Origin: a virus
Lineage: Duplodnaviria > Heunggongvirae > Uroviricota > Caudoviricetes
Strand: one strand, 5' to 3'
Length of the DNA stretch: 38,758 nt
Virus record (IMG/VR): IMGVR_UViG_2541047683_000001
Part shown: positions 1,054-36,138 of the stretch, in pieces
How the letters are laid out: each line of letters begins with the position of its first letter
Numbering within the stretch: position 1 is the first letter of the stretch
Translations under genes and position numbers: made by a program
Notes under the pieces: generated by a model
The model's database searches: none
Told to the model about the DNA's origin: nothing
What the model saw: the letters and a program-made list of their open reading frames with translations, nothing else

Positions 1054-1083
1054 AAAAATGCCCTCCAATGGAGAGCATTTTTA

Positions 1084-1099
1084 CTGTATACATAACCAG
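1084..1099. promoter_or_regulatory. weak LexA-box-like site CTGTATACATAACCAG between OLD-like gene and int
   Basis: CTGT-N8-CCAG, one mismatch to the CTGT-N8-ACAG consensus; AT-rich spacer. Confidence 0.25.
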
Positions 1100-1130
1100 T
1101 GTCAATGTATGTATATTATTAAGAATACAT

Positions 1131-3113
1131 TCATTTTGAGTTAAAAAAGCTTATAATTTCTGTCAGCCATGAAGGCGTATATTTTTCATTAATATCAAAA
1201 AGAGCATTGGTGTATTCTTGACAAAATTTAGTTTTATTTCCAGATTCCTCAAAATATCTTTTTATTATTAATTTTTGGCTAGTTGTCAGATCTAATATTC
1301 CAGCTGCAACATTGGACGGTAATGTGTTAATGTTCTCTATAAATGAGAATCTATTATCACCTTTCTTATAAAGTCGATGTAATGTTTTGTGGAAAATAAT
1401 CCCAGATAATACATCTTCAATTTCAGTTGGTGGAGAAACTCTATTGTCGGTGGTTTTTAGTAAGTCAGCATCACTTAAATCATCGCGTAGCAGCAGTCTT
1501 CTGATTCTGACTTGCGATATGCTGTCTGAAGTATCAAATTTATCATACGATTGATCTGTATCCAATAAACAAAAGACTTTTCCTTTTATTGCCGGCTTTC
1601 TGTCTTTTAAAGCTAAGATAAGATATGAGTAAATATCTTTGAGTGCAAATGACCCCCCAACACTTAATACAATTATATTTTTATTTTCTAAATTTTCAAA
1701 TTTAAGATGGGATTCAATGTATAATTTATCTGTACGTCCTTCGCACAATATCCAATTATAATTATTTTGTGATGTAATTGAAGTTATTATGGATTGAACA
1801 AGATCATGATTGCTTTTCACTTCTAAAGTATCTAAATATGAGCCTTTAGATTCTTTAACAAGGGTCGACAATTCATCTCGATAATACTCAAGGTTAAGGC
1901 ATTTTATCAATGCTTGATTTGGAGAAACATAAGTGGCACTACCGCTCATTGCTGCAGGAAGAAAACCATACCAATGAGTAGTACATATGGTTTGAATGCC
2001 TATTTCACTTATTTTTTTAATCTTCTCAAATTGTTTAAAGCAAGATGTCGCATGTAAAGATAACTCTGGTTCATCGACAGCTAATATTGTAGCTTGTTGA
2101 GTTTTTTTGGGATTGTCTTTTAAAAAACCTATGGCTAAATCAAGTAATGCCTTCCTTTTTTCACCAGAACTAAGATTGTGGACAGGTGTATCCCTATTGA
2201 TATTGTCAATATAATGAAGAATTTTGTCACTAAAGTAAGTTTCGATGATTTTAGAAATCATGTGGCGTTGAGTAAATGAATTCTGCCGTTGCGTCGGTCT
2301 TTTGAATTGATACTGCCCATCAAGCTTATATGATAGTTGATCAACAAAGTCATTTAAGTGACGATTTATTTCATTGATGTCACTTTTTTTAATTATCTTA
2401 CTGATTCGTTGTTGTAAGTTTTCTCCAAGTAAAGATTGCAATAACTCACTCTCTATTTTTGAATATTCTGACGTGGTAATTTCTGCAGGCAAATAAATAT
2501 AGTTATAGATATCTTTTATATTATCAAGCAAGCGATTTGATGTGTTCTTGAAATGGTTTTTCTGAGTGTTTGGGGAGCTTCCATCGGGAATTAGTTCATC
2601 AATTCTGGAATGATAATCCTCAATTGATTCAAATATTGACATATAAGATCTAGGTGCTTCATTCGCTTTTTCTTTTATGACTCCTAAAGGAATTAAAAAG
2701 TAATCTTTAGATGAGTAGTTTAACTCTAATATATTGCGATGTGATATAAATTTTTCGGCAATTGTTCGTTGCATTGAATTAAAGTCTTCACTTTCCAATT
2801 GCCATGTAATATCACTAATAACATCAAGAGCTTTATAAGTAAATGAATTAGACCTGAAGCGATCTTTACGTATGAGAAAAATTGGTACAATAAACGGTTC
2901 ACGAGTTTCGAATCCCAGACTCCTGGCATCATTATTTATATCAAGTCTGTTTATATCTGTTCTGTTAAGAACAACATCCAAAGCTTGCAATATTGAACTT
3001 TTTCCAACACCATTTTCACCAATAAGCCAAGATGAATTGTTATTCATAGCGATCGGAATATAATGTTGATTCCTAAAATTTTTGAAGTTTCTTAAAATAA
3101 CACCGATAATCAT
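1131..3113 (-). CDS. OLD-family protein: N-terminal ABC-type ATPase plus C-terminal TOPRIM-like nuclease domain (candidate anti-phage cargo)
   Basis: ORF track 1131..3116; ATG at 3113 with AAGGGA upstream, 19 nt after the repressor stop; Walker A GENGVGKSS; Walker B-like ILAVDEPELSLH; C-terminal ILCEGRTD glutamate motif and CLLDTDQ DxD motif; visibly AT-rich. Confidence 0.7.
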   Translation of the reverse strand: MIIGVILRNFKNFRNQHYIPIAMNNNSSWLIGENGVGKSSILQALDVVLNRTDINRLDINNDARSLGFETREPFIVPIFLIRKDRFRSNSFTYKALDVISDITWQLESEDFNSMQRTIAEKFISHRNILELNYSSKDYFLIPLGVIKEKANEAPRSYMSIFESIEDYHSRIDELIPDGSSPNTQKNHFKNTSNRLLDNIKDIYNYIYLPAEITTSEYSKIESELLQSLLGENLQQRISKIIKKSDINEINRHLNDFVDQLSYKLDGQYQFKRPTQRQNSFTQRHMISKIIETYFSDKILHYIDNINRDTPVHNLSSGEKRKALLDLAIGFLKDNPKKTQQATILAVDEPELSLHATSCFKQFEKIKKISEIGIQTICTTHWYGFLPAAMSGSATYVSPNQALIKCLNLEYYRDELSTLVKESKGSYLDTLEVKSNHDLVQSIITSITSQNNYNWILCEGRTDKLYIESHLKFENLENKNIIVLSVGGSFALKDIYSYLILALKDRKPAIKGKVFCLLDTDQSYDKFDTSDSISQVRIRRLLLRDDLSDADLLKTTDNRVSPPTEIEDVLSGIIFHKTLHRLYKKGDNRFSFIENINTLPSNVAAGILDLTTSQKLIIKRYFEESGNKTKFCQEYTNALFDINEKYTPSWLTEIISFFNSK

Positions 3114-3132
3114 CAATTGTCCCTTCTGAATG

Positions 3133-4068
3133 TTATTTACAAGTCATTATTACTTTGGCGATGATGTTAATTTCATCAATTTTACATTCGATCTTATTAT
3201 TCTTACTTTCTAAAGCAATTCGACTGTTAGGCAATCGAATTAAATTACGTATAGAATAAATACCATCAATGGCTACAAGCCATAAGCCATCGTTTACTTC
3301 TTCAAAATCGCTATTGATTAGGTAAATAACATTTTCAAATTCAATAATTGATATTTTGCTACTATCGTTTGGTAAAAGTGTACGATCAAACATTAAATAT
3401 CCGTTGGTAAATAGTTTACCATTGGTAATATTTTGTTTGGTTAGACAAGTTATTTGTGATTTTGCATCCATAAACATAGGACCTTCAGATTGCGAAAGCC
3501 ACCGCAGCGATGCCCCTGTTTCTAAAGCACACTTGATAATCCAGTCGGAGGGAAAAGTATCCCTCATATAACGATTGGCTAATGTACTTTTTGAGACACC
3601 AAGGTGGTCAGCTAAGGCTTGCCGGGTTTTGAATCCATATGCTTGGACAAGGCGTTCTATTGCTGCCTTACCCCCCTTATTTGGATTTATATTGAACTCA
3701 TTTCGGATGTTTTCTTTTCGAACCGTCTTATCACAATTCGAGATTTTTTTGGTTTCATGTTCATCATTGAGTTCATGTTGGTGTGAAACGCTTTCGTTTA
3801 TGCAATCGGTGCCAAATGCTAACCATTCGACAGTAACACCTGTTTCCATGCTACAAATGACAACCCAGTCTGCGGGGAACGTGTCACGTGCATATCTGTT
3901 TGCCATCGTGCTTTGGGAGATACCAATGTGGTTACAGAATGCTTGGCGGGAAGTGAAGCCGTAAGCCTGCAGAATCCGATCTATGACCTGCTGCCCTCCA
4001 CGATTCTGCATTATTAAAGCCTTCATATCATCGCTAACATGGCGAAATGTGTTTTTGTGTGTTGACAT
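3133..4068 (-). CDS. cI: phage 186 CI-like immunity repressor with tandemly duplicated N-terminal DNA-binding domain
   Basis: Two diverged copies of the module ..QAYGF..RQA...LG.S.ST.ANRY.RDTFP.DW...C..ETG...WL (about aa 25-85 and 128-190), then a C-terminal region; alternative in-frame ATGs at 4026 and 4011, true start uncertain. Confidence 0.8.
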   Translation of the reverse strand: MSTHKNTFRHVSDDMKALIMQNRGGQQVIDRILQAYGFTSRQAFCNHIGISQSTMANRYARDTFPADWVVICSMETGVTVEWLAFGTDCINESVSHQHELNDEHETKKISNCDKTVRKENIRNEFNINPNKGGKAAIERLVQAYGFKTRQALADHLGVSKSTLANRYMRDTFPSDWIIKCALETGASLRWLSQSEGPMFMDAKSQITCLTKQNITNGKLFTNGYLMFDRTLLPNDSSKISIIEFENVIYLINSDFEEVNDGLWLVAIDGIYSIRNLIRLPNSRIALESKNNKIECKIDEINIIAKVIMTCK

Positions 4069-4156
4069 ATCCGATTTGTGATCCTATTCTCCGAAATGTG
4101 AAGTTGAAGTCACGATTAATACCGGCTCACCACAAGCCAATAGGAGATGTTGCATC
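4069..4156. promoter_or_regulatory. immunity switch region between divergent repressor and apl/cox-like genes
   Basis: 88-bp intergenic region between divergently transcribed cI and apl-like genes; contains tandem TGAAGT TGAAGT and AGGAG RBS for apl; promoters/operators not resolved. Confidence 0.4.
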
Positions 4157-6510: not shown

Positions 6511-7364
6511 GCACCATCCTGAAATGGGCGGGAAATAAAACCGCCATTATGTCCGAACTGAAAAAACACCTTCCTGCTGGCCCGCGACTGGTTGAACCTT
6601 TCGCGGGTTCCTGTGCTGTGATGATGGAGACGGATTACCCCAGCTATCTGGTTGCGGATATTAATCCTGATTTAATCAACCTCTATAAAAAGGTTGCCGC
6701 TGATTGTGAATCGTTTATATCTCGCGCCAGAATTTTATTTGAGAACGCAAACAGGGAGATGGATTATTACAACATAAGGCAGGAGTTTAATTACTCGACT
6801 GAAATTACTGATTTCATGAAAGCGGTATATTTCCTGTATCTCAATCGTCATGGTTACCGTGGGTTATGTCGCTATAACAAGAGCGGGCATTTCAACATTC
6901 CCTACGGGAATTATAAAAATCCGTATTTCCCTGAAAAAGAAATTCGCAAATTTGCAGAAAAAGCCCAACGAGCAACGTTTATCTGCGCCAGCTTTGATGA
7001 AACGCTGGCGATGCTGCAGGTGGGGGATGTGGTGTATTGCGATCCGCCGTATGACGGTACGTTTTCCGGCTATCACACTGATGGTTTCACTGAAGATGAC
7101 CAGTATCACCTGGCATCCGTTCTTGAACATCGGTCATCAGAAGGACATCCGGTCATTGTTTCTAACAGTGATACATCCCTGATCCGTTCGCTGTATCGCA
7201 ATTTTACTCACCACTACATCAAGGCAAAACGCAGCATCGGTGTAGCAGCTGGTGAGAGTAAATCTGCAACAGAAATCATCGCTGTTTCCGGGCCGCGCTG
7301 CTGGGTGGGATTTGATCCTTCGCGTGGCGTGGATAGTTCTGCCGTGTACGGAGTGCGTGCATGA
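6507..7364 (+). CDS. DNA adenine methyltransferase (Dam family, orphan)
   Basis: N-terminal KWAGNK motif and catalytic DPPY ([10 protein letters not shown]); ATG 6507 overlaps TraR stop; GGAGG RBS. Confidence 0.9.
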
Positions 7365-9775
7365 GCCATGCTGATATGAACAACTGCAGCGGCTTTAACG
7401 AGGTCGCCGCAGCATTCTCATGGAACAGCCCGAAAAAGGCCATTAACCCTTATCTGGACCCGGCGGAAGTTGCGCCGGTTTCTGCGCTTTCAAACCTGAT
7501 CACTCTGTACGCTACTGATAACGAGCAGGAACAACTGCGCCGCGAGGCACTGAGTGATCAGGTCTGGGAGCGTTATTTCTTTAATGAATCCCGTGATCCT
7601 GTCCAACGCGAAATGGAGCAGGATAAGCTCATTAGCCGGGCAAAGATGGCGCATGAGCAGCAGCGTTTTAATCCGGACATGGTCATTCTGGCCGACGTCA
7701 ACGCCCAGCCTTCCCATATCAGCAAGCCGCTGATGCAACGTATTGAATATTTCAGCAACCTGGGCAGGCCAAAGGCTTATTCCCGCTATTTGCGTGAGAC
7801 GATTAAGCCATGTCTGGAACGACTGGAGCATGTACGCGACAGCCAGCTATCTGCATCTTTTCGTTTTATGGCAAGCCATGAAGGGCTGGACGGTCTGCTG
7901 ATCCTGCCTGAAATGAGTCAGGATCAGGTGAAACGCCTGTCTACCCTTGTCGCTGCGCATATGAGCATGTGTCTTGATGCCGCTTGTGGTGATTTGTACG
8001 CCTCCGATGATGTTAAGCCAGAAGAAATCCGCAAGACATGGGAAAAGGTGGCTGCAGAAACCCTGCGACTGGATGTCATACCGCCTGCGTTTGAGCAACT
8101 CCGCCGGAAAAGAAACCGCCGCAAACCTGTGCCCTATGAACTCATTCCGGGTTCGCTGGCGCGTATGCTGTGCGCCGACTGGTGGTATCGGAAATTATGG
8201 AAGATGCGTTGCGAATGGCGGGAAGAGCAGTTGCGTGCTGTCTGCCTGGTCAGCAAAAAAGCATCTCCCTATGTCAGCTATGAAGCCGTGATGCATAAAC
8301 GTGAGCAGCGCCGTAAGTCGCTGGAGTTTTTCCGTTCTCATGAACTGGTGAACGAAGACGGCGACACGCTGAACATGGAGGATGTGGTAAACGCCAGCAG
8401 CAGCAACCCGGCGCATCGCCGCAATGAGATGATGGCCTGTGTTAAAGGCCTGGAGCTTATCGCGGAAATGCGTGGTGACTGCGCCGTTTTTTACACTATC
8501 ACCTGTCCGTCACGTTTCCATTCCACGCTAAATAACGGCAGGCCAAACCCGACCTGGACCAACGCGACAGTAAGACAAAGCAGCGATTATCTGGTCGGCA
8601 TGTTTGCTGCATTTCGTAAGGCTATGCACAAAGCCGGGTTGCGCTGGTATGGCGTGCGGGTGGCTGAGCCGCATCATGACGGCACAGTTCACTGGCACCT
8701 GTTGTGTTTCATGCGCAAAAAAGACCGCCGCGCCATTACTGCATTGTTGCGTAAGTTTGCCATCCGTGAAGACCGCGAGGAGCTGGGCAATAACACGGGG
8801 CCACGCTTTAAGTCTGAGCTGATAAACCCGCGCAAAGGAACGCCGACAAGCTACATTGCGAAATATATCAGTAAGAATATTGACGGGCGTGGTCTGGCTG
8901 GCGAGATCAGTAAGGAAACGGGTAAATCCCTGCGTGATAACGCTGAATACGTTAATGCCTGGGCGTCTCTGCATCGTGTTCAGCAATTCCGCTTCTTTGG
9001 CATTCCGGGGCGTCAGGCTTACCGTGAACTGCGATTGCTGGCTGGTCAGGCGGCAAGGCAACAGGGTGACAAAAAAGCAGGTGCGCCGGTACTGGATAAC
9101 CCGCGCCTTGATGCCATCCTGGCTGCTGCTGATGCTGGTTGTTTTGCCACCTACATCATGAAGCAGGGCGGCGTACTGGTTCCCCGCAAATATCACCTCA
9201 TCAGAACCGCTTATGAAATCAACGAAGAGCCAACCGCCTATGGCGATCACGGTATTCGTATTTATGGCATCTGGTCACCCATTGCAGAGGGCAAGATCTG
9301 CACTCATGCAGTGAAGTGGAAAATGGTTCGTAAGGCCGTTGACGTTCAGGAGGCGGCAGCCGACCAGGGCGCTTGCGCCCCTTGGACTCGTGGCAATAAC
9401 TGTCCCCTTGCTGAAAATTTGAACCAACAAGGGAAAGACAAATCAGCTGATGGGGATACCAGGACGGACATTACCCGCATGGATGACAAGGAGTTGCACG
9501 ATTACCTGCACAGTATGAGCAAAAAAGAGCGCCGGGAACTGGCAGCAAGGTTACGCCTTGTGAAACCGAAACGGCGTAAAGACTACAAACAGCGAATTAC
9601 AGATCATCAGCGACAGCAGCTCGTGTATGAACTGAAGTCCAGGGGATTTGATGGCAGCGAGAAAGAGGTCGATTTACTGCTTCGCGGCGGCAGTATTCCA
9701 TCAGGAGCAGGCCTGCGTATCTTCTATCGGAACCAGCGTTTGCAGGAAGATGATAAGTGGCGAAACCTGTATTAA
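7361..9775 (+). CDS. A: replication initiation protein (P2 gpA / 186 RepA-like rolling-circle initiator)
   Basis: 804-aa ORF; HWHLLCF HUH-type motif and YIAKYISKN tyrosine motif; ATGA overlap with dam stop. Confidence 0.9.
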
Positions 9776-9869
9776 TTACGCGGGTTAACAATTCGTGCTC
9801 TTAATAATACCAGGCATATCAGGCTGATGAGCATAAAAAAACGTTTTACATCAGTAAGATTATTATATA

Positions 9870-9885
9870 CTGTAAATATAAACAG
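9870..9885. promoter_or_regulatory. LexA box CTGTAAATATAAACAG overlapping a candidate promoter
   Basis: Perfect CTGT-N8-ACAG with AT-rich spacer (TACTGTAAATATAAACAGTG), about 45 bp upstream of the ATG at 9928; weaker half-site follows. Confidence 0.7.
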
Positions 9886-9927
9886 TGGTTATGTATACAG
9901 TATTGCTTTGGTGTCATAGGAGGAAAG

Positions 9928-10116
9928 ATGCAGGACTATTTTTTGGAGTCTTTGAAGCTCCAGCGCATTGATTTTTTTCTTAAGCTTGTAGCGGCTAGTG
10001 AGTGTAGTGATGAAGAGAAGGGGCTGGCCCTGCAGTGGGTTTCTGAACTGACAGATGAACTTATGGCAAAAATCAGAACCCACGAATACAATCGCTCAAT
10101 GGATGTCATCAGCTGA
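9928..10116 (+). CDS. hypothetical small protein, first gene of putative SOS-controlled operon
   Basis: 62-aa ORF with AGGAGG RBS 4 nt upstream, downstream of LexA box. Confidence 0.55.
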   Translation: MQDYFLESLKLQRIDFFLKLVAASECSDEEKGLALQWVSELTDELMAKIRTHEYNRSMDVIS

Positions 10117-10126
10117 GGTGACCTTT

Positions 10127-10360
10127 ATGCGCATTGAAATAATGATCGATAAAGAGCAGAAGATTAGCCAGTCTACCCTGGACGCCCTTGAATCCGAGCT
10201 TTACCGCAATCTGCGCCCCCTGTATCCCAAAACGGTAATTCGCATCCGCAAAGGTAGCTCTAACGGTGTGGAACTGACCGGACTGCAACTGGACGAAGAA
10301 AGAAAACAAGTGATGAAAATTATGCAGAAGGTGTGGGAAGACGACAGCTGGCTGCATTAA
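10127..10360 (+). CDS. DinI-like damage-inducible protein
   Basis: 77 aa MRIEIMIDKEQKIS...VWEDDSWLH, DinI-like from N- to C-terminus; GAGGTG RBS; track ORF 10055 has an upstream extension without RBS. Confidence 0.75.
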   Translation: MRIEIMIDKEQKISQSTLDALESELYRNLRPLYPKTVIRIRKGSSNGVELTGLQLDEERKQVMKIMQKVWEDDSWLH

Positions 10361-10519
10361 GAAAAGTTGCTGGCGTCTGAACTTGGTTCTGGCGTCAGCA
10401 AGGTTGAACAACGAGTACAGTGAGGCGTTAGGTGTGGCGTTTATTTGATGAGTGAACGCCCGTTCTGCGACAGGTTCGGAGATTAAGGTTGAAACTACGG
10501 GCAAAATACCATCTTTTTC

Positions 10520-10945
10520 CTACTTAATTGAGTCCAGTAACAAGTTACAGTTACTCTCATTGTAGAGAGAACGAGCAATTAGTGTTACCTGCTTTCCATT
10601 CATTCCCGGCTTATCCCATAACACAGCTTCTTGCGACGCCACAAATTCAGCATAATCAATTATGCGTTGTTCGTGATCTGGTTCCTCATAGCCAAAGTAT
10701 GAGAGCGCATCGTTGTAAGCGTGGTAAGCTGCTTTCTGTAATATCTTGATATCGGCTGTAGGTACTTGCTCCGTGTAGCTAGGATCTAATTGTGTGCTAC
10801 TGCCATAGAATGCACATGAAAGGTAAGATATTGATTTCTGTTGAGCTTTAGTTCCTTTCTCATAGTTTTTAGCTGTTACCGCCTGAACTGGGACGCTAAC
10901 AAAGCTTGCAACCAGAATTAAAATTAATACGTAAAAGCTTTTCAT
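10520..10945 (-). CDS. hypothetical secreted protein (moron-like cargo)
   Basis: N-terminal Sec signal peptide MKSFYVLILILVASFVSVPVQA; GAGG RBS; visibly AT-rich; opposite strand to neighbours. Confidence 0.65.
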   Translation of the reverse strand: MKSFYVLILILVASFVSVPVQAVTAKNYEKGTKAQQKSISYLSCAFYGSSTQLDPSYTEQVPTADIKILQKAAYHAYNDALSYFGYEEPDHEQRIIDYAEFVASQEAVLWDKPGMNGKQVTLIARSLYNESNCNLLLDSIK

Positions 10946-11218
10946 TTTGACCTCAGCCGAAACGTTAGAGAGACTATCGAAATTTGTAAAACCCGTGGCG
11001 ATTCAGTTTGAGATCCTCCCCCTTACATGATTTTTAATCAAATATATGCTTTTGTAAGCATACCTGTTAACCGAATTATTTATTTTTAGAGATCTTCCGA
11101 CATACTGATTATGCCCGCTGAGGAGTTCACCTTGCGTAAAGTCCGATTCGCTTTACTCGTCTGTGCATGTCTATGCTGCATGAGATTGCATGATCGTTTG
11201 AGGATCGTTTTTGCTAAG

Positions 11219-11243
11219 GCCCGCCAGAACTGGCGGGCTTTTG
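11219..11243 (+). terminator. rho-independent terminator-like hairpin
   Basis: GCCCGCC(agaact)GGCGGGC followed by TTTTG. Confidence 0.5.
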
Positions 11244-11287
11244 CGTAGATCATGCACCTGCATGAAAACCACTACATAAAGCGGGCA

Positions 11288-11306
11288 GGCGTGGCGGGGA
11301 TACGAG
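11288..11306. other. cos: candidate cos cohesive-end site GGCGTGGCGGGGATACGAG
   Basis: First 13 nt match my recollection of the P2/186 19-nt cohesive end (GGCG.GGCGGGGA...); lies between A and Q as expected; recollection of the cos sequence is uncertain. Confidence 0.3.
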
Positions 11307-11382
11307 CGCGCGGTTTGACTGAAAAGTTATGATAAATCACAATTAGGTCTAGTTAGCATTTTTTCTTTTCATGGAGACAACT

Positions 11383-11883
11383 ATGGAACAGGATTATATA
11401 GATCGTGGCTTTGGTTTATGGTCAAAACCTGGTGTCCCGCGTAAGGGATGGGTAAACGTAGGAGTGGAAGACCTAGAAGAAAGTCGAAAAATTTGTGATA
11501 TGTGTGGGAAAACAGAGATAAGGTATGTCCACATAATGTCACATGAGAATTACCCAGATTACTTAGAGGTAGGGTGCATATGCGCTGGTCACTTGGAGAA
11601 TGATTATGATTCTCCAAGAAAACGAGAAAGTGAAATTAAAAGTCGATCAGCCAAAAGAAAAAGATGGTGTAACTTACCTTGGAAAATATCTAAAAAAAAT
11701 CAATTTTACATAAAAAAAGATGGATATAGCATCATCATTCTCGACAAGGGTGATTATTTTATGGGAATGATAGTTGACGAGAGAACGCAAATTAAATATT
11801 GGACTAGAGAATGTAAAGATACTAACGAGGCGAAATTACTTTCATTCGATAGAATAACAGCGCTAATGGCAAGCTCTAAATAA
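11383..11883 (+). CDS. zinc-ribbon-like protein, first gene of a two-gene accessory cassette
   Basis: ATG 11383 with GGAGA upstream (track ORF starts 11371); cysteine cluster CDMCGK...VGCICAGH; lysine/arginine-rich tail; AT-rich. Confidence 0.65.
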   Translation: MEQDYIDRGFGLWSKPGVPRKGWVNVGVEDLEESRKICDMCGKTEIRYVHIMSHENYPDYLEVGCICAGHLENDYDSPRKRESEIKSRSAKRKRWCNLPWKISKKNQFYIKKDGYSIIILDKGDYFMGMIVDERTQIKYWTRECKDTNEAKLLSFDRITALMASSK

Positions 11884-11899
11884 TTTTAGGATTAATTAA

Positions 11900-13030
11900 A
11901 TGTATAATGTTGTATTGGATACAAACATACTCCATGCGGAAGGTATTCACTCACGAGGTATGGCAACTCTTAAAAAGTTAATAGATGAAGGCATTGTTAA
12001 AGTTCATTTGCCTGAACTAGTCGTGAGAGAATTTTCCACGAAAAAAATCACCGTAATAAATGAAGCCTATAATAAGGCGATTAATATTTTAAGAGGCACT
12101 GAACGCGAAGCAAGAGGATCCGAAGAGTCGATACTGCGAGATATTGATGAACTAAAAAACATCATAGACGACAAAGTGAAAGTACTTGATGAAAAAATTA
12201 ATGGTGCAGTTAGGCAATGGATTCAGGATTTTCGAATAAATATTATCCCGTTACATAGTGAATTTACATCAACTGTTTTTGAGAACTATTTTTGTGGCAA
12301 TGGTGTTTTTAAATCGAAAAAATCAAGAGAAGACATACCAGATGCTTTCATTAGCCTCAGTATCGAAAAGTTGCATGATGAAGTCGGTGAATTAATGGTT
12401 GTACTCAAGGATGCGTTGTTTAGAAAGCATTTGTCTGGCTTGGATGGGGTAAAAGTTTATGATAGCTTAGATGAACTTTTCCAATTGCCTAACATTAGAG
12501 CCAGTTTAGAAAATGAAGCCGCATCCTCTTTTTTGACATCAAGTTTATTCAGAACAGCGTTAGAAAACTTCTTACAGCAGAAACCGAATTATTTCGAAGG
12601 ATTCTATCTTGAGATTACTGAGGGAACAGAACTGCTTGCTGATTGGGTTATTGGTGCACATACCGAAATCAACGATTATGGACAAGTAAAGGATATTACA
12701 ATAAGTGATGTAATCAGAAAATCTGAAAGTAACTATTCAGCAAAAATTTCTTTTAAATTGGACTCTAATATCTCTTATGTAACGGATTACGGTGAAGTGC
12801 TTAAAATAGAGAGAGATAAAAACAGAAGCGCGGATTGTTGGAGTATGACAGGTGATGGCATGTGCGATCTTAATGAAAATGTGAATTTAACCTTGGAAGG
12901 TGACTTAAGTATTACCTTTCAAGGTGATTTCAATACATTGAAAAAAGAAGAATCCGAAACTTATTTGAATGAAAATGTTATTGTTATGACAATAAGTTTA
13001 TATGAGGCTATTATAGACAAAGTTCTTTGA
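11900..13030 (+). CDS. PIN-like domain protein, second gene of the cassette
   Basis: 376 aa; N-terminus MYNVVLDTNIL typical of PIN-fold first acidic residue, later EDIPDAF; AGGA RBS; 17 bp after upstream gene; AT-rich. Confidence 0.7.
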   Translation: MYNVVLDTNILHAEGIHSRGMATLKKLIDEGIVKVHLPELVVREFSTKKITVINEAYNKAINILRGTEREARGSEESILRDIDELKNIIDDKVKVLDEKINGAVRQWIQDFRINIIPLHSEFTSTVFENYFCGNGVFKSKKSREDIPDAFISLSIEKLHDEVGELMVVLKDALFRKHLSGLDGVKVYDSLDELFQLPNIRASLENEAASSFLTSSLFRTALENFLQQKPNYFEGFYLEITEGTELLADWVIGAHTEINDYGQVKDITISDVIRKSESNYSAKISFKLDSNISYVTDYGEVLKIERDKNRSADCWSMTGDGMCDLNENVNLTLEGDLSITFQGDFNTLKKEESETYLNENVIVMTISLYEAIIDKVL

Positions 13031-13033
13031 TTT

Positions 13034-13060
13034 AAAAGAGGCGGTTTTTCGCCTCTTTTT
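13034..13060. terminator. bidirectional rho-independent terminator between PIN-like gene and portal gene
   Basis: AAAGAGGCG(gttttt)CGCCTCTTTTT with A-run upstream and T-run downstream. Confidence 0.7.
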
Positions 13061-13065
13061 ATTAT

Positions 13066-14094
13066 CTAAATAGTGTAATTCCCAAATTTTATTATTTCAA
13101 TATCTGCCCAATTATTTAATTCTGTTAATCTTTTCTGCAGTGGTGATAGTTCATTACGCACAAATACATTTGCGGCCTTCTCCACATCCCCAAATCCTCC
13201 AACATTATTAGGCATAATCCCCATCATTTGCGGCGGCACGCGGTGCGCAGCCATCATGTCGTCGCGGCTGACATTTTTGATATTCAGAAATTCATCCTTC
13301 GCCGCGACTTCTGACAACGGGATAATCTGAAGACCATCCTTTTTGCCGTTAGGTGAGTACATAAACAGGTTGCGGAAGTTGCCTGGACCTTTGGCGCTTT
13401 TCATCGCATTGCGGAGGTTGTTCACATCCTCCTGGTTCTGCGCGGCATCGGTCATGTACATGATGAAGCCTGCATGACTGCCGTTAATGTAATACTTCCG
13501 GCGGAACAGCGTGGCGGACTCGTTGAGCAGGGCTGACGGAATGGCAGAAAGATAGCCGGGCAGGCCGTAGATCTCCTGGTTAATGTCCGGTTCCATCAGA
13601 TGAAAAATGCTGCCTTTCGTGAACTGATACGGCTGGGTTGTCATACCGTATTGCACAAACCAGTAGGTATCCAGGTCTAACCCGCGTCGGGTGTATTTTG
13701 CCAGAGCAGGCTCAAGGGCGATAACTTCACCGAAGCGGTTCGTGCGTTTCTCCAGGTAGGCGTTACCAAATACCAGATAGTCCTGCACAAAACGTGAAAA
13801 AGCCTGCTGGCTGAGCAGCGGGTGAGGGATGTAGGTACTGGTCAGAATGTTGCATTTCACCGCAATTGGTGAACTGTGATGCACGGCAGCGCGGAAGGTG
13901 CGCGCCAGTCCGTCAAAGCTTACTGGCGGTTCATACCAGCGATCTGTCTGTACGCATTCCACATAGTCCAGCAGTTCACGGCGGTCCAGAACAGGAACGG
14001 GATCGCCAAAGCTGAATGTTTCGGCTGAAGTCTGGCTTTTATGCTGAATCTGGGGCGTCGACGCAGTGCGGCTCTTCTTACTCTTTCCCATCAA
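13066..14094 (-). CDS. Q: portal protein (P2 gpQ-like)
   Basis: 342-aa ORF upstream-adjacent to terminase in P2 order; P2 gpQ-like sequence and length. Confidence 0.9.
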   Translation of the reverse strand: MMGKSKKSRTASTPQIQHKSQTSAETFSFGDPVPVLDRRELLDYVECVQTDRWYEPPVSFDGLARTFRAAVHHSSPIAVKCNILTSTYIPHPLLSQQAFSRFVQDYLVFGNAYLEKRTNRFGEVIALEPALAKYTRRGLDLDTYWFVQYGMTTQPYQFTKGSIFHLMEPDINQEIYGLPGYLSAIPSALLNESATLFRRKYYINGSHAGFIMYMTDAAQNQEDVNNLRNAMKSAKGPGNFRNLFMYSPNGKKDGLQIIPLSEVAAKDEFLNIKNVSRDDMMAAHRVPPQMMGIMPNNVGGFGDVEKAANVFVRNELSPLQKRLTELNNWADIEIIKFGNYTI

Positions 14095-15857
14095 AAAATC
14101 TCCACAATATTGCTGGTATTGGCGGACTCGCCCTGCAGCGGTTCGTTAAACAGTGCGTGCATTGTTGCCCAGGCCAGATCGGCATGGCTGGCTTCTTCGC
14201 TGCGGCTGGCTTCATAGGTTGGGCGGTTGCCGCTGGCGGTGGTGGCGCGACGGATTGCCATAAATGACTGCGCTATGTCGGTGTGTCCGGCGTCAAACTC
14301 CAGACGACGGTGACTGATAATGTCGTAGGCCTTGAGTACCAGGGCGTTTTTAACGTTGGGGTTGTAGACAAACTCCCGGACGGCTGGAAAAAACGCTTTC
14401 ACGTTCTCGTAAACCCCGTGGCCGACACCTGTCGAGTCGATGCCGATGTAGGTCACGTTGTATTGCTCGGTCAGTTTTTTGATGGCGTCAGCCTGGGCGC
14501 GGAAGTCCATCCCGCGCCACTGGTGACGCTCAAGAATGCGGAACTTACCGCCCGGCACGGCTGGCGGTGCCACCACCACGCACCCGGCGCTGTCGCCGTT
14601 TTGCGTACCTTTTGCCGGGTCATAACCGATCCACACTTCGCGCCAGCCAAACGGGCGCAGGGCCAGTGCATGAAAGTCGGTCCAGACTTCCCAGCTGTCC
14701 ACCATGCACGCCTGCAGTTCGCTGAGCGGGAACACGGACGCGAGATCGTCCACGAACTCGCACATCAGCAGGTTCTGGTATTCGTCCGGGCTGTACTCCA
14801 TGCGTAGCTGGTCGAGGTCGAACAGGTTACAGCCGCCGCGCACCGCATCTTCCACGGTGACTATCTGGCGGTATTGCCCGTCTGCGCACAGCAGGCCGGG
14901 GGCCAAATTGCTGTGGGACAGGTCGATGTCCACCTTGTCAGCTTTGTTGCGTCCACGGTTGAACAGCGCACCGGACCAGAACGGATAAGCACTGTGGGTC
15001 AGGCTGGATGGCGTGGAAAAATAGGTTTGTCGCCATTTTTTGTGAATAGCCATCCCGGAAGCCACTTTGCGCAGCTCCTGGAATTTCGGTATCCAGAAAT
15101 ATTCATCCAGATACAGGTTGCCGTGATAACTCTGGGCCGTGCGGGCATTGGTGCCGAGGAAGTAAAGCGTGGCTCCGTTAGGAAGCACCATCGGATCGCC
15201 TTTTAGCTCCACCTCGACTTCTTTGGCGAAGTCGATGATGTATTGTTTAAAGACGTGGGCCTGAGCCTTACTGGCAGAAAGGAAAATCTGGTTACGTCCG
15301 GTAAGCAGGGCGTCAATCAGGGCTTCACGGGCAAAATAGAAGGTCGCGCCGATCTGGCGTGACTTCAGCAGGTTGCGGATGCGGTTGGTTTTTCCGGCTT
15401 CCCACCAGTGGCGCTGGTAGTTGAACATGGAGGAATGGAAGATTTCTTCCAGCTTCTCAATCTGCTCATCGGTGAAAACATTCTTTTCCGGCTGACGGCG
15501 TGGGCCTTTATTGCGGTTGGCGACGTTAGGGTTTAAGTCGGCTTCGTTGCCGCCATTGTTAAACTTGCCGATCCGCGCGTGGCGCTCAGACTGGCGCGCC
15601 AGCAGGTCAATCTCTTTGAAATCTTTCCCTTCTTTGTGCTCCTTCATAATGAGCTGGCAGTAGCGTGCGGCGGTGGTGAGCTGCATCTGATCCAGCGGCC
15701 CATAGTCACCCCACTTGTCGCGTTTTTTCCAGCTGTGAACGGTTGCAACTTTCTCGCCCAGCATTTCAGCAATGCGGGCTACGCGGTATCCCTGAAAGTA
15801 CAGCAGCATGGCCTGCCGACGGGGATCGAGATCTGCGGGTGTCAGTGTGGTGTTCAT
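14091..15857 (-). CDS. P: terminase large (ATPase) subunit (P2 gpP-like)
   Basis: 588-aa ORF; P2 gpP-like length and sequence; overlaps Q start. Confidence 0.95.
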   Translation of the reverse strand: MNTTLTPADLDPRRQAMLLYFQGYRVARIAEMLGEKVATVHSWKKRDKWGDYGPLDQMQLTTAARYCQLIMKEHKEGKDFKEIDLLARQSERHARIGKFNNGGNEADLNPNVANRNKGPRRQPEKNVFTDEQIEKLEEIFHSSMFNYQRHWWEAGKTNRIRNLLKSRQIGATFYFAREALIDALLTGRNQIFLSASKAQAHVFKQYIIDFAKEVEVELKGDPMVLPNGATLYFLGTNARTAQSYHGNLYLDEYFWIPKFQELRKVASGMAIHKKWRQTYFSTPSSLTHSAYPFWSGALFNRGRNKADKVDIDLSHSNLAPGLLCADGQYRQIVTVEDAVRGGCNLFDLDQLRMEYSPDEYQNLLMCEFVDDLASVFPLSELQACMVDSWEVWTDFHALALRPFGWREVWIGYDPAKGTQNGDSAGCVVVAPPAVPGGKFRILERHQWRGMDFRAQADAIKKLTEQYNVTYIGIDSTGVGHGVYENVKAFFPAVREFVYNPNVKNALVLKAYDIISHRRLEFDAGHTDIAQSFMAIRRATTASGNRPTYEASRSEEASHADLAWATMHALFNEPLQGESANTSNIVEIF

Positions 15858-15999: not shown

Positions 16000-16833
16000 A
16001 TGACAGTGAAAGCAAAGCGTTTTCGCATCGGGGTGGAAGGTGCCACCACCGACGGACGCGAAATCCAGCGTGAATGGCTGGAACAGATGGCAGCCAGCTA
16101 CAACCCGGCGGTTTACACCGCGCTGATTAACCTTGAGCACATCAAGTCTTATCTGCCGGACAGCACCTTTAACCGCTACGGCAAGGTGACGGCGCTGTTT
16201 GCTGAAGAAATCACGGAAGGTCCGCTGGCAGGCAAGATGGCGCTGTATGCCGACGTTGAGCCCACGGAGTCCCTGGTGGAGCTGGTGAAAAAAGGCCAGA
16301 AATTATTCACCTCTATGGAAGTCAGCCCGAAGTTCGCTGATACGGGCAAAGCCTACCTGGTCGGCCTGGCTGCCACTGATGACCCTGCCAGTCTGGGCAC
16401 TGAAATGCTGACATTCAGCGCCAGTGCAGCCCATAACCCGCTGGCAAACCGCAAGCAGAATCCCGCCAATCTTTTTACCGCTGCAGAGGAAACGGTGATC
16501 GAACTGGAAGAAATCCAGGATGACAAACCGTCCCTGTTTGCCCGTGTCACGGCGCTGTTCACCAAAAAAGAGCAGTCCGATGACGCCCGGTTCTCTGATG
16601 TGCATAAGGCCGTGGAACTGGTCGCCACTGAGCAGCAGAACCTGAGTGCGCGCACCGAAAAATCCCTGTCTGAGCAGGAAGAACGCCTGTCTGAGCTGGA
16701 GACTGCCCTGCTGGCACAGCAGACCGCCTTTAACGAACTGGTGGACAAGCTGAGCCAAGAAGACAGCCGCCAGGACTACCGCCAGCGTGCAACAGGCGGT
16801 AACGCCCCCGCTGACACTCTGACCAATTGCTGA
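16000..16833 (+). CDS. O: capsid scaffolding protein (P2 gpO-like)
   Basis: FRIGVEG...DGR...INLEH...YLVGLAATDDPASLGTE matches gpO family. Confidence 0.9.
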   Translation: MTVKAKRFRIGVEGATTDGREIQREWLEQMAASYNPAVYTALINLEHIKSYLPDSTFNRYGKVTALFAEEITEGPLAGKMALYADVEPTESLVELVKKGQKLFTSMEVSPKFADTGKAYLVGLAATDDPASLGTEMLTFSASAAHNPLANRKQNPANLFTAAEETVIELEEIQDDKPSLFARVTALFTKKEQSDDARFSDVHKAVELVATEQQNLSARTEKSLSEQEERLSELETALLAQQTAFNELVDKLSQEDSRQDYRQRATGGNAPADTLTNC

Positions 16834-16849
16834 TGGAGCACAAAACCTG

Positions 16850-17908
16850 ATGAAGAAGAATACCCGCTTTGCTTTTAACGCTTACCTGCAGCAACTGGCG
16901 CGTCTGAACGGTGTGGCAGTTGAAGAACTGTCCAGCAAGTTCACCGTAGAGCCGTCCGTGCAGCAGACATTGGAAGACCAGATCCAGCAATCCGCCGCTT
17001 TCCTGACGCTGATTAACGTCACGCCAGTGACTGAGCAGTCCGGTCAGCTGCTGGGGTTGGGAGTTGGCAGCACCATTGCCGGAACCACTGATACCACCGC
17101 GAAAGAGCGTGAACCTGTCGATCCGACGCTGATGGTCGATGTGGAATATAAATGCGAGCAGACCAACTTTGACACGGTACTGACCTACGCGAAGCTGGAC
17201 CTGTGGGCGAAGTTTCAGGATTTTCAGGTGCGTATCCGTGACGCCATCGTGAAACGTCAGGCACTGGACCGCATCATGATCGGCTTTAACGGCGTGAAGC
17301 GTGCGAAAACCTCCAACCGTAGCGAAAACCCGTTACTGCAGGATGTGAATAAAGGCTGGCTGCAGAAAATCCGTGAGGATGCACCGGATCACGTCATGGG
17401 CAGCACCACCACGGGCGGTGAAACCACACCGGGTGCGGTGAAAGTCGGGAAAGGTGGTGAATATGCCAACCTGGACGCCGTGGTGATGGATGCCGTTAAT
17501 GAGCTTATCGACGTGGTCTATCAGGACGATGACGATCTGGTGGTGATTTGCGGTCGTGAACTGCTGTCTGACAAGTATTTCCCGCTGGTCAACAAAGAGC
17601 AGGAAAACAGTGAAAAACTGGCTGCCGATATGATCATCAGTCAGAAACGCATGGGTGGCCTGCAGGCCGTGCGTGCGCCGTTCTTCCCGCCGAATGCGCT
17701 GCTGATCACCCGTCTGGATAACCTGTCCATCTACTGGCAGGAAGACACCCGCCGCCGTTCAGTTATCGACAACCCGAAACGTGACCGGATTGAAAACTTT
17801 GAATCCGTTAACGAAGCCTATGTGGTTGAGGACTACCGCTGCGCCGCACTGGTGGAAAACATCCAGATTGGTGATTTCAGCGCCGCCGCAGCCGAAACCG
17901 GAGCGTAA
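16850..17908 (+). CDS. N: major capsid protein (P2 gpN-like)
   Basis: TRFAFNAYL...KFTVEPSV N-terminus and overall P2 gpN-like sequence. Confidence 0.95.
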   Translation: MKKNTRFAFNAYLQQLARLNGVAVEELSSKFTVEPSVQQTLEDQIQQSAAFLTLINVTPVTEQSGQLLGLGVGSTIAGTTDTTAKEREPVDPTLMVDVEYKCEQTNFDTVLTYAKLDLWAKFQDFQVRIRDAIVKRQALDRIMIGFNGVKRAKTSNRSENPLLQDVNKGWLQKIREDAPDHVMGSTTTGGETTPGAVKVGKGGEYANLDAVVMDAVNELIDVVYQDDDDLVVICGRELLSDKYFPLVNKEQENSEKLAADMIISQKRMGGLQAVRAPFFPPNALLITRLDNLSIYWQEDTRRRSVIDNPKRDRIENFESVNEAYVVEDYRCAALVENIQIGDFSAAAAETGA

Positions 17909-17911
17909 TCC

Positions 17912-18562
17912 ATGAGCCTGAGTCCCGCACGGCAGCATCGCCTGCGCGTTCAGGCTGAACAGGCCGCCCGCGAGGGCGGCAGTGTTCGCCACGCATCGGG
18001 CTATGACCTGATGCTGCTGCAACTGGCGGAAGACCGCCGCCGTCTCAAGGGCGTTCAGTCCACGGTCAAAAAAGCGGAAATCAAGGTGGAGCTGCTGCCG
18101 AAGTACGCCGCCTGGGCAGAGGGTGTCCTGGCTGCCGGAGGCGCTCAACAGGATGACGTGCTGATGTACGTGATGCTGTGGCGCATTGATGCCGGAGATT
18201 ATGCCGGAGCGCTGGAGATCGGGCGTCATGCCCTGCGTCATGGCTGGGTGATGCCGCTGGGTAACCGCAACGTGCAGACCGTGCTGGCAGAGGAAATGGC
18301 AGACGCCGCGCAGAGCGCAATGCTTGCCACCACCGGCTTTGATGCCGATCTGTTGCTGCAGACGCTGGAGCTGACAGACGGTCTGGATATGCCGGACCAG
18401 TCACGGGCGCGTCTGCATAAAGCGATTGGCGCGGTCCTGAGTGAAAGCAATCCGGCGTCTGCCCTTAATCATCTCAACCATGCGTTACAGCTCGATCCCC
18501 GCTGTGGCGTGAAAAAAGACAAACAGCAGCTGGAGCGCAGACTGCGCAATGACAGCCGCTGA
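17912..18562 (+). CDS. M: terminase small/endonuclease subunit (P2 gpM-like)
   Basis: LMYVMLWRIDAGDYAGALEI and LELTDGLDMPD conserved blocks. Confidence 0.9.
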   Translation: MSLSPARQHRLRVQAEQAAREGGSVRHASGYDLMLLQLAEDRRRLKGVQSTVKKAEIKVELLPKYAAWAEGVLAAGGAQQDDVLMYVMLWRIDAGDYAGALEIGRHALRHGWVMPLGNRNVQTVLAEEMADAAQSAMLATTGFDADLLLQTLELTDGLDMPDQSRARLHKAIGAVLSESNPASALNHLNHALQLDPRCGVKKDKQQLERRLRNDSR

Positions 18563-29938: not shown

Positions 29939-30454
29939 ATGGCTTTACCACGCAAATTAAAACACCTGAACCTGTTTAATGACGGGAACAACTGGCAGGG
30001 GATCGTTGAGTCGCTGACGCTGCCGAAATTCACCCGCAAATATGAGAAGTATCGCGGCGGCGGAATGCCGGGTGCAGTGGATGTGGATCTGGGGCTTGAT
30101 GACAGTGCGCTGGACACAGAATTTTCCATTGGTGGTACTGAACTGCTGCTGTTTAAACAGATGGGCAAAGCCACGGTGGATGGCATCCAGTTGCGCTTCA
30201 CCGGCTCTATCCAGCGTGACGATACCGGAGAAGTGCAGGCCGTGGAACTTGTGGTGCGTGGACGTCACAAAGAAGTGGATTCCGGCGAGTGGAAGACGGG
30301 CGAAAGCAACACCACCAAAGTGACCAGTACCAACAGCTACGTGAAGCTGACTATCAATGGTGAGGTGCTCTATGAAGTGGACCTTATCAACATGGTGGAA
30401 ATTGTGGACGGTGTGGACCTGATGGAAGCGCACCGCAACGCCCTCGGCCTCTGA
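29939..30454 (+). CDS. FII: tail tube protein (P2 gpFII-like)
   Basis: 171-aa ORF after sheath; gpFII-like length and position. Confidence 0.9.
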   Translation: MALPRKLKHLNLFNDGNNWQGIVESLTLPKFTRKYEKYRGGGMPGAVDVDLGLDDSALDTEFSIGGTELLLFKQMGKATVDGIQLRFTGSIQRDDTGEVQAVELVVRGRHKEVDSGEWKTGESNTTKVTSTNSYVKLTINGEVLYEVDLINMVEIVDGVDLMEAHRNALGL

Positions 30455-30508
30455 TGTATCTGAACGGCGCGGAATGCCGCGCCAGAACCCAATTTACAGG
30501 ACAGCAAA

Positions 30509-35926: not shown

Positions 35927-36138
35927 CGTTAAAAAACAGTGCTTCTAACATCATGATTTTAAAAGGCATAAATTTTAGACAACAAAAAACCCACCAACCT
36001 TGAACCGAAATGGCGGGGTTGATGGGCTCCACAAAATGGGGACATCAAAGAAAAGCAGTGGCACTAATTAAGACTGATGCCCTGCGGAAAAGTTCTGCGG
36101 TTGTGCAAAAAAATTTCATTTTCAGGGCAACTTCAGTT

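Follow-up and report, generated by a model that had tools for sequence, protein, structure and literature searches.

Phages P2 and 186 and the satellite P4 have 19-nucleotide (nt) long 5′ cohesive ends. The 55-base-pair (bp) core common to the packaging sites (cos) of P2 and P4 is attributed to Ziermann and Calendar (1990) in later papers (PMC5694545, PMC9594776, PMC3931495). Adjoining cos, the region between the genes for gpA and gpQ is described as a hotspot, for which 1,650 different gene arrangements are counted in Escherichia coli (PMC9122126, Rousset et al. 2022). In Fels-2 and PSP3, the gene tum is divided in two, with one gene for the antirepressor and a separate dinI gene (PMC3121763). 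The locus described here has features of all these systems. It is located in a 38,758-nt stretch of DNA (IMG/VR virus record IMGVR_UViG_2541047683_000001; hereafter, the window), which is a segment of an E. coli chromosome with a complete P2-like prophage. Judged from sequence comparisons, positions 11163..11313 of the window probably form the packaging site of a Fels-2/186-like prophage of the P2 family (Peduoviridae), and a hairpin inside the site would serve as a terminator of rightward transcription. The probability of this reading is estimated at about 0.7.

The predicted packaging module consists of the following elements, with negative and positive positions counted from the top-strand nick.

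11163..11313, plus strand: conserved cos module of about 150 bp, from about −125 to +26
11164..11192, plus strand: three distal TGCATG direct repeats, at 11164, 11177, and 11187; their columns are conserved in 92 unique cos regions, and 186, P2, and P4 have them too
11219..11242, plus strand: terminator-shaped hairpin with the stem 11219–11227/11230–11238 (GCCCGCCAG/CTGGCGGGC) and a T-tract at 11239–11242
11251..11264, plus strand: proximal inverted TGCA repeat CATGCAccTGCATG followed by AAAAC, in columns that are nearly invariant; P2 and P4 are mostly identical here
11288..11306, plus strand: cosN, the 19-nt cohesive end, with predicted nicks at 11287/11288 in the top strand and 11306/11307 in the bottom strand
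11307..11312, plus strand: conserved CGCGCG on the right-hand side of the cohesive end, with hardly any variation in columns +21..+25

At positions 11288..11306, the plus strand has the 19-nt cohesive-end sequence GGCGTGGCGGGGATACGAG, which is of the Fels-2/SEN8 type. An exact copy of the string GGCGWGGCGGGGA occurs only once in the 38.7-kb window, compared to approximately 0.002 expected by chance on both strands according to our own arithmetic, and the cohesive-end start GGCG(A/T)GGCGGGGA is matched exactly at 11288..11300 and nowhere else in the window. The resemblance of this site to the first 13 nt of the P2/186 cohesive end, which the first-pass annotation of the window had given, is borne out: the 19-mer agrees with the end of 186 in all of the first 13 bases and in 15 of 19 overall, and with that of P2 in 12 of the first 13. 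When the record ends of 186, P2, and P4 are joined and aligned with the window, the alignment is free of gaps and reads ...TGCATnAAAACC-N9-AAGCGGGC(A/G) / GGCG(T/A)GGCGGGGA(T/A)A.... / nGCGCGC, where the slashes mark the ends of the 19-mer. The annotated cosL of P2 and cos of 186 align base-for-base with 11288..11306. Alignment with the cos regions of P2, 186, and Fels-2 had been proposed in the first-pass annotation as a check of the site; in that alignment the consensus is conserved at 11288..11306, and P2 and 186 align without gaps. The records of SEN8 and Erwinia phage EtG terminate exactly at the equivalent of 11287, which corresponds to a break at 11287/11288, and the cosR of fiAA91-ss is annotated at the equivalent place. 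The SEN8 record begins with ggcgtggcggggatacgag cgcgcgc, annotated as a "putative cos site", in which the 19-mer is identical to that of the window and is quoted as the cos site in the SEN8 genome paper (PMC5427200). The assignment of 11288..11306 as the cohesive-end sequence of this prophage is thus supported, with the predicted nicks placed by homology.

The site is located where cos of the P2 family is expected, between the A side and the portal gene Q, and the cognate terminase genes P and M are present. The earlier placement of the site between A and Q is correct, with A at 7361..9775 (Phage_GPA) and Q at 13066..14094 on the minus strand. The relevant genes of the prophage are:

7361..9775: replication gene A (Phage_GPA)
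13066..14094, minus strand: portal, gpQ homologue (Pfam Phage_portal and RefSeq annotation)
14091..15857, minus strand: large terminase subunit, gpP homologue (Pfam Terminase_6N, Terminase_6C, and Terminase_5), the enzyme expected to cut cos
17912..18562, plus strand: small terminase subunit, gpM homologue (Pfam Phage_term_smal, 1.4e-40), the expected cos-recognition subunit
16000..18562: scaffold O, capsid N, and small terminase M
3133..4068: 186-type CI repressor gene

The terminase, composed of gpP (14091..15857) and gpM (17912..18562), would cut 11288..11306 by staggered nicks and generate 5′ cohesive ends.

A BLAST comparison of the region to 50,697 phage records identifies a conserved block at 11163..11315 of the window and nothing else. 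The block is 92–97% identical in Fels-2, RE-2010, SEN8, SopEPhi, E. coli phages 500465-1 and 813R9, and dozens of Klebsiella phages, and 87–103 records of P2-like phages share its 150 bp at this level of identity. Weaker matches are found in P2 and in P2-like phages of Yersinia, Erwinia, Aeromonas, and Ralstonia. A scan of IMG/VR with CAGGCGTGGCGGGGA returned 120 loci, 104 of which share the architecture TGCATnAAAA...AAGCGGGCA / 19-mer / GCGCG without insertions or deletions (indels). The 19-mer type of the window, ending in ATACGAG, is the commonest among these 104 loci (53), followed by those ending in ATAGCAT (29) and AAAGCAT (15, the 186 type), and the rarer AGAGCAT (5) and ATACGAT (2). 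In an ungapped alignment of 92 unique cos regions, the conserved columns comprise TGCATG at −124, −111, and −101, the central CGCCAGnnCTGGCG, CATGCAnnTGCATGAAAAC at −37..−19, AAGCGGGCA, the 19-mer, and GCGCG, and none of the 92 sequences has an indel between −125 and +1. The second half-repeat TGCATG of the proximal inverted repeat, at 11259, opens the 55-bp P2/P4 core at 11259..11313. In the gap-free alignment with P2, P4, and 186, TGCAT to GCGCGC spans 55 bp; the core pattern TGCATnAAAAC...AAGCGGGC / 19-mer / nGCGCGC is present in the window, and 11259..11313 is nearly invariant in the 92 unique cos regions.

The window ceases to be homologous to its relatives at about −125 on the left side and, within about 7 bp of the cohesive end, at +26 on the right, and in more than 1000 E. 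coli genomes the left-side homology stops at 11312–11325 of the window. The module is therefore a fixed anchor between two exchangeable cargo slots. The sequence TGCAT/ATGCA occurs in five copies in 130 bp, whereas 0.26 are expected (Poisson, 8e-6), and this is the densest such stretch in the window. The TGCATG repeats are putative recognition elements of the terminase small subunit gpM. Two GATC (Dam) sites 11 bp apart are situated between the TGCATG repeats and the hairpin, in the motif GATCGTTTGAGGATCG at 11192..11206. Most Fels-2-type cos regions retain this motif, and the palindrome GATCCAAAAAGGATC takes its place in some relatives.

Counted from the nick, the hairpin occupies positions −69..−46. 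It is therefore part of the conserved module but not of the 55-bp core, and it fills the spacer that separates the distal TGCATG elements from the proximal one. The sequence 11219..11243 reads GCCCGCCAG-AA-CTGGCGGGC-TTTTG, as the first-pass annotation had reported when it described a plus-strand terminator hairpin just upstream of cos, and its fold is far beyond chance. The plus-strand RNA folds with −25.1 kcal/mol (z = −4.2), and none of 200 shuffled sequences folds as well. The stem is GC-rich and has nine Watson–Crick pairs, or eleven with A-U/G-U extensions, and a 4-nt loop, as is characteristic of an intrinsic terminator. It is followed by the required U-tract, encoded by TTTT at 11239..11242 and succeeded by GCGT. 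The minus strand has the same stem without a T-tail. Hairpin and T-tract would form a Rho-independent terminator for rightward, plus-strand transcription.

The terminator shape is maintained among the relatives. In the 34 unique Fels-2-type variants, 91% of the stem cells are paired, compared to 27–49% when the partners are slid by 1–3 columns, and 28 of the 34 have at least four T within the 6 nt after the stem. In an alignment of 41 distinct sequences, 91.4% of the cells are paired and both sides are changed in four of eight pairs, most of these double changes stemming from four added non-Fels-2 sequences; the covariation score is reached by none of 500 shuffled alignments. At the hairpin position, locus L079 has GGGGCCAG/CTGGCCTC followed by T7, and locus L065 has GCCCGCC-tttcat-GGCGGGC followed by T6, without the CCAG/CTGG core. 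Other terminator-like variants are those of L124 and of L038 and L100, the last two of which have identical hairpins and share one row of the alignment. The variants of L079, L065, L038/L100, and L124 therefore indicate that, with varying sequence, a hairpin with a T-tract has been kept or has re-arisen here. At the same position, just a 6–7-bp palindrome is found in most 186-type cos regions, in 186 itself, and in P4, namely CGCCAGnnCTGGCG in the 186 type and CCGCGCC/GGCGCGG in P4, and P2 and several other loci have no palindrome at −69..−50. From these alignments, the Fels-2-type element looks like an ancestral cos-spacer palindrome that gained three GC pairs in length and acquired a T-tract. 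Six Fels-2-type loci (L014, L023, L031, L060, L068, and L127) have a much longer hairpin GGGTCGGGGCCGCCAGAACTGGCGCGCTTTCCGGCCCG at −85..−40, with up to −32 kcal/mol. The T's of this long hairpin are buried in the stem, there is no free T-tail, and it is not terminator-shaped.

The transcription unit that could deliver RNA polymerase to the hairpin is located further upstream. The nearest plus-strand unit is the operon of the LexA box, tumA, and dinI, which ends at 10360, 860 nt from the hairpin, with a minus-strand gene in between:

9868..9886, plus strand: LexA box TACTGTAAATATAAACAGT, an exact TACTGT-N8-ACAGT, with 0.33 expected by chance
9928..10116, plus strand: 62-amino-acid (aa) open reading frame (ORF), homologue of Fels-2 STM2728 and in the same position (phrog_698, 3.6e-38)
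10127..10360, plus strand: DinI-like (TumB) gene (Pfam DinI, 1.3e-22; phrog_189, 1.5e-29; RefSeq "DinI-like family protein")
10520..10945, minus strand: 141-aa cargo gene, transcribed away from cos (phrog_7437, 4e-99; no Pfam match)

The 62-aa ORF is, judging from its homology, the probable TumA-type antirepressor half of a split tum. The operon has a putative SOS promoter like 186 p95, with TTTACA at 9845..9850, a 17-nt spacer, and TACTGT at 9868..9873; these hexamers were read by eye and not scored by the promoter scan. The LexA box overlaps the −10 element, and 186 p95 is annotated with the same arrangement. The dinI-like gene is the last plus-strand gene upstream of the hairpin, and a terminator scan of the window lists no other plus-strand terminator between dinI and cos. 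Therefore, 11219..11242 would be the first stop for rightward transcripts. An 11+4-bp hairpin is found at 10367..10401 on the plus strand, directly after the dinI stop codon (−21 kcal/mol, z = −3.0, no T-tail). It occupies the place of the 186 partial terminator t95a, which is annotated between tum and orf97.

The hairpin appears to be an orphan because a plus-strand orf97-type gene has been replaced by the minus-strand cargo gene 10520..10945. The latter sits in the slot of the plus-strand orf97-like genes (Fels-2 STM2726 and 186 orf97), and the same minus-strand 141-aa gene is present in the orf97 slot of the IMG/VR loci L018, L076, and L108. About 100 bp separate the hairpin of Fels-2 from the end of the plus-strand orf97-like gene that precedes it. 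The statement of the first-pass annotation that no gene feeds the hairpin is therefore true locally, but it does not hold overall, since the hairpin travels with the conserved cos module. A link between the T-tract and the orientation of the upstream gene was considered and rejected: of the Fels-2-type loci that have a T-tract, 16 have their nearest upstream ORF on the plus strand and 9 have it on the minus strand, and therefore the terminator stays with the cos module whatever adjoins it. Directly past cos, 29 of 32 Fels-2-type loci have a plus-strand cargo ORF that would otherwise be exposed to read-through. Of the two functions suggested earlier for the hairpin, the termination of the SOS-operon transcript is the better supported, by the LexA box at 9868..9886, the upstream tumA/dinI-like genes, and the precedent of 186 t95b.

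The sequence arrangement suggests how the terminator would work. Rightward transcripts could come only from the LexA-controlled tumA–dinI operon, with its promoter near 9845..9886, or from read-through of the early operon. Stopping them at the hairpin would keep cos untranscribed, block the SOS-driven expression of the plus-strand cargo at 11383..13030, and block antisense transcription into the Q–P operon. A bidirectional terminator at 13034..13059 would do the same job from the other side of cos.

Several observations weigh against this interpretation. The dinI-like gene is separated from the hairpin by about 860 nt, which include an antisense cargo gene. The U-tract is short, with four U's followed by GCGU, and a simple consensus terminator scan of the window did not list the hairpin, probably owing to the loop of 2 nt that remains when the stem is maximal. 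The four non-Fels-2 sequences in the alignment of 41 were put into it for their terminator-like look, which inflates the covariation count. A free T-tail is missing from the hairpins of 7 of the 34 Fels-2-type variants (the GGGTCGG...CCGGCCC subgroup and L021). The palindrome of the 186-type regions and P4 has no T-tract and only 64% of its cells are paired, so that it is kept more as a sequence than as a pairing. When the 450 bp ahead of cos were scanned in about 100 loci, a plus-strand terminator was found in most Fels-2-type loci and in fewer than half of the others. A family-wide rule that a terminator always precedes cos was dropped, because many 186-type loci lack a recognizable one within 450 bp; a plus-strand terminator near cos is therefore not a family-wide requirement. 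Finally, the cos of SEN8 was itself assigned by annotation or similarity and not by mapping of the ends (PMC5427200).

The alternatives to a functional cos with a terminator for the SOS operon differ in how much of the evidence they accommodate. It is very improbable that the cos-like sequence is a relic in a cryptic prophage, no longer cut or used. The 19-mer deviates at 4–5 of 19 positions from the experimentally sequenced ends of P2 and 186, and the window has G at +26, where the majority has C; however, position +26 varies among the relatives, and the module is intact and identical or nearly so to that of SEN8, which was recovered as particles, and of many other phage records. Long ORFs account for a full P2-type set of head, terminase, replication, and repressor genes, and the left flank together with cos is found in more than 1000 E. 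coli genomes at 95–99% identity. Even less credible is the possibility that the hairpin terminates an independent small RNA (sRNA) starting in the intergenic region 10946..11218. A strong terminator without a same-strand protein gene ending nearby is a classic signature of an sRNA, and approximately 270 bp of non-coding DNA are available upstream of the hairpin. However, the promoter scan identified no plus-strand promoter-like site in 10950–11218; the best hexamers found by eye, TTTACT at 11152..11157 and TATGCT at 11172..11177, are just 14 nt apart; and no Rfam family reaches the gathering or the permissive threshold, with a sole match at E = 0.83. Conservation begins at 11163, in the TGCATG repeats that are common to the cos regions of P2, 186, and P4. 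Since the sequence conserved from there consists of cos repeats, any sRNA promoter would fall in non-conserved cargo DNA. The first-pass suggestion that the hairpin ends a small RNA, which has neither a promoter nor an Rfam family to identify an sRNA gene, is abandoned. Short ORFs over the hairpin (11111..11248 on the plus strand and 11086..11253 on the minus strand) were rejected as spurious, because they match no family, start outside the conserved block, and lack RefSeq annotation.

More weight has to be given to the idea that the palindrome at −69..−50 is mainly a structural packaging signal, such as a dyad binding site, a bend, or an extruded hairpin recognized by the terminase or a host factor, and that its terminator shape in the Fels-2 lineage is incidental or secondary, although this is still unlikely. 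Most 186-type cos regions and 186 itself have the core CGCCAGnnCTGGCG(CGG) at precisely this distance from the nick, the satellite P4 has its own palindrome there, and none of the 186-type regions nor P4 has a T-tract. Indel-free spacing across the 92 unique sequences is expected of an architectural element, and the sequence of the right half-site is conserved in the non-Fels-2 group even where the pairing is lost. By contrast, P2 and the loci L017, L030, L081, L090, L091, and L106 have no palindrome at the position, which is also outside the 55-bp core common to P2 and P4. Locus L065 keeps a perfect hairpin and T6 but has lost CCAG/CTGG, and therefore structure and U-tract are favored over sequence recognition. 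In our own count for the Fels-2 group, about 9 transitions keep plus-strand G·U pairing and about 3 break it, which is weak evidence from non-independent events. The T-less palindrome of the 186-like phages and P4 suggests a second or different role, in packaging, which may coexist with termination. It is tentatively proposed, as a possibility well short of an even chance, that the dyad at −69..−50 is an undescribed, widely conserved architectural element of the packaging signal of the P2/P4 family, and that its 24-nt Fels-2 version doubles as an insulator of cos and the defence cargo from SOS-induced transcription.

The first-pass annotation had placed cargo genes on either side of cos, with about 1.7 kb between cos and the portal gene, and the distance from 11306 to the Q stop codon at 13066 measures 1760 bp. 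It had also contrasted this with P2, whose portal gene is nearly adjacent to cos; indeed, Q of P2 starts 187 bp from the end. The elements on the right-hand side are:

11383..11883, plus strand: cargo gene 1, encoding 166 aa from the ATG at 11383 (GGAGA ribosome-binding site; RefSeq call) or 170 aa from 11371, with CxxC motifs
11900..13030, plus strand: cargo gene 2, encoding a 376-aa PIN_12-domain protein (Pfam PIN_12, 2.2e-17)
13034..13059, both strands: bidirectional terminator AAAAGAGGCG-GTTTTT-CGCCTCTTTT, from the terminator scan; fold of −16.6 kcal/mol, z = −4.5

A promoter-like site, TTGACT-17-CACAAT, is present at 11315..11343, ahead of cargo gene 1. The product of this gene has no match in Pfam, PHROG, NCBIfam, or PADLOC and belongs to only two clusters among 5.8 billion proteins. 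Cargo gene 2 has no PADLOC match and no relative in the PDB by sequence, and the PIN_12 domain is the sole hint of its function. Searches of the right-hand cargo against PADLOC, PHROGs, NCBIfam, and PDB sequences were empty, and Pfam PIN_12 is the only match. The terminator at 13034..13059 closes both the cargo pair and the Q–P operon and is the counterpart of the annotated P2 tQ and 186 tW. The stretch 9776..13065 is 100% identical to strain C4; 5 of 5426 E. coli genomes have the full arrangement, and more than 1000 have the portion that reaches from the left to cos. As is typical of the hotspot, the gene content between gpA and gpQ, adjoining cos, is variable, and the cargo beside cos differs among Fels-2, SEN8, and 500465-1. 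The slot between cosL and Q picks up foreign genes, according to PMC5694545, which cites Dodd and Egan (1996) and Nakayama (1999), and the retron Ec67 is located between cos and a packaging gene (PMC7826664). The pair at 11383..13030, which is complete in only 5 of the 5426 E. coli genomes, is a candidate for an uncharacterized defence or toxin pair in the P2 hotspot, as judged from its location and domain content. In the related E. coli phage 500465-1 (locus L001, 757..1989 and 3723..4151), the gene A region is interrupted by IS100-like fragments, and a TIR-domain protein is encoded to the right of cos. The TIR-domain protein is another defence-type cargo at the same slot.

On the left-hand side, the 141-aa protein has an N-terminus that resembles a signal peptide by eye (MKSFYVLILILVASFVSVPVQA). 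At the immunity end of the prophage, an OLD-like nuclease gene of 661 aa (1131..3116, minus strand; AAA_15 and OLD-like TOPRIM) adjoins the CI repressor gene, and a second LexA-box-like sequence, TACTGTATACATAACCAGT, with one mismatch, is located at 1082..1100. The region 1082..3116 may represent further defence cargo. The chromosomal flank to the right of the prophage contains the RybB sRNA at 35981..36059 on the minus strand (Rfam, 104 bits) and a gene for an Asp-Al_Ex family transporter at 36139..37824 on the minus strand. These two genes mark the right chromosomal flank, and therefore the attachment site is probably just to the left of rybB.

The type of cos, represented in the SEN8 and Fels-2 records, the 55-bp core, and the cargo slots are already known from the literature or from annotated records. 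The element is an ordinary, known kind of site in a well-studied phage family, and the general understanding of these phages is unchanged. The literature searched, excluding the primary cos papers, contains no description of a terminator embedded in a Fels-2-type cos module or of the conserved palindrome in the cos flanks of 186-like phages and P4, and novelty is not claimed. What is added is the anatomy of the cos module and a reason for the "orphan" look of the terminator. The placement of cos at 11288..11306 defines where the virion genome truly ends and splits what had been called an accessory island into left and right cargo slots, each with its own transcription logic. The placement also aids the annotation of P2-like prophages and the mining of the cos-proximal defence hotspot. 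Beyond the literature reached, the Fels-2-type cos module would carry its own rightward terminator, built on a palindrome that is also present in 186-like phages and P4. If this is true, the terminator in the module would explain how cargo on either side of cos can be swapped without becoming coupled to transcription of the SOS operon, and it would matter for the design of P2/P4 cosmids.

The closest relatives of the locus are Fels-2, SEN8, and RE-2010 (Felsduovirus) together with 500465-1 and 813R9, which have the identical 19-mer and a module that is 92–97% identical, including the hairpin, T-tract, and TGCATG repeats. As in Fels-2-type phages, cos is located between the tum/dinI region and a plus-strand cargo gene upstream of the portal gene Q. 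Only the cargo differs: Fels-2 has a plus-strand orf97-like gene on the left and a 565-aa ORF on the right, whereas SEN8 has a minus-strand DNA-binding protein on the left and a hypothetical protein and an HNH endonuclease on the right. The variable genes between gpA and gpQ beside cos resemble those of the cos-proximal cargo and defence hotspot of P2 (Rousset et al. 2022; Dodd and Egan 1996; P2 tin/old), which are often related to defence. However, the secreted-looking 141-aa protein on the left and the 166-aa CxxC and PIN_12 proteins on the right match no PADLOC model.

The module of the window has the distal TGCATG repeats, proximal TGCATnAAAAC, AAGCGGGC(A/G) / GGCG(T/A)GGCGGGGA..., and GCGCG in common with 186, P2, and P4, at equal spacing. 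By contrast, positions 14–19 of the cohesive end are TACGAG in the window, AAGCAT in 186, and AAGCAC in P2, and the portal gene directly follows cos in P2 and 186, whereas cargo intervenes in the window. The 186 terminator t95b, at the end of the p95/tum–orf97 SOS operon, is likewise a rightward intrinsic terminator and the last element before the packaging site. The experimentally named t95b is located at 30436..30463 of 186, about −188..−161 from the nick and outside the TGCATG repeats, and its sequence (AAGACCGGTACTATTAAAGCCGGTTTTTTT) is unrelated to that of the window hairpin, which is at −69..−46 inside the module. Orthology of the two was rejected on the grounds of position and sequence, since the window hairpin aligns to the T-less 186 palindrome CGCCAGAGCTGGCG. 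From this alignment, the window hairpin and t95b are analogous rather than orthologous, and the hairpin would do the job of t95b at a different position and with a different sequence.

The cosB of phage lambda, with its R3-I1-R2-R1 terminase and IHF sites next to cosN, has repeated motifs on one side of the nick and a spacer of fixed length, in a general resemblance to the arrangement here. The motifs and the terminase family are unrelated, and no IHF consensus was found by eye in the cos module of the window. In lambda, late transcription crosses cos; by contrast, the cos site of the window is bracketed by the predicted terminators at 11219..11242 and 13034..13059.

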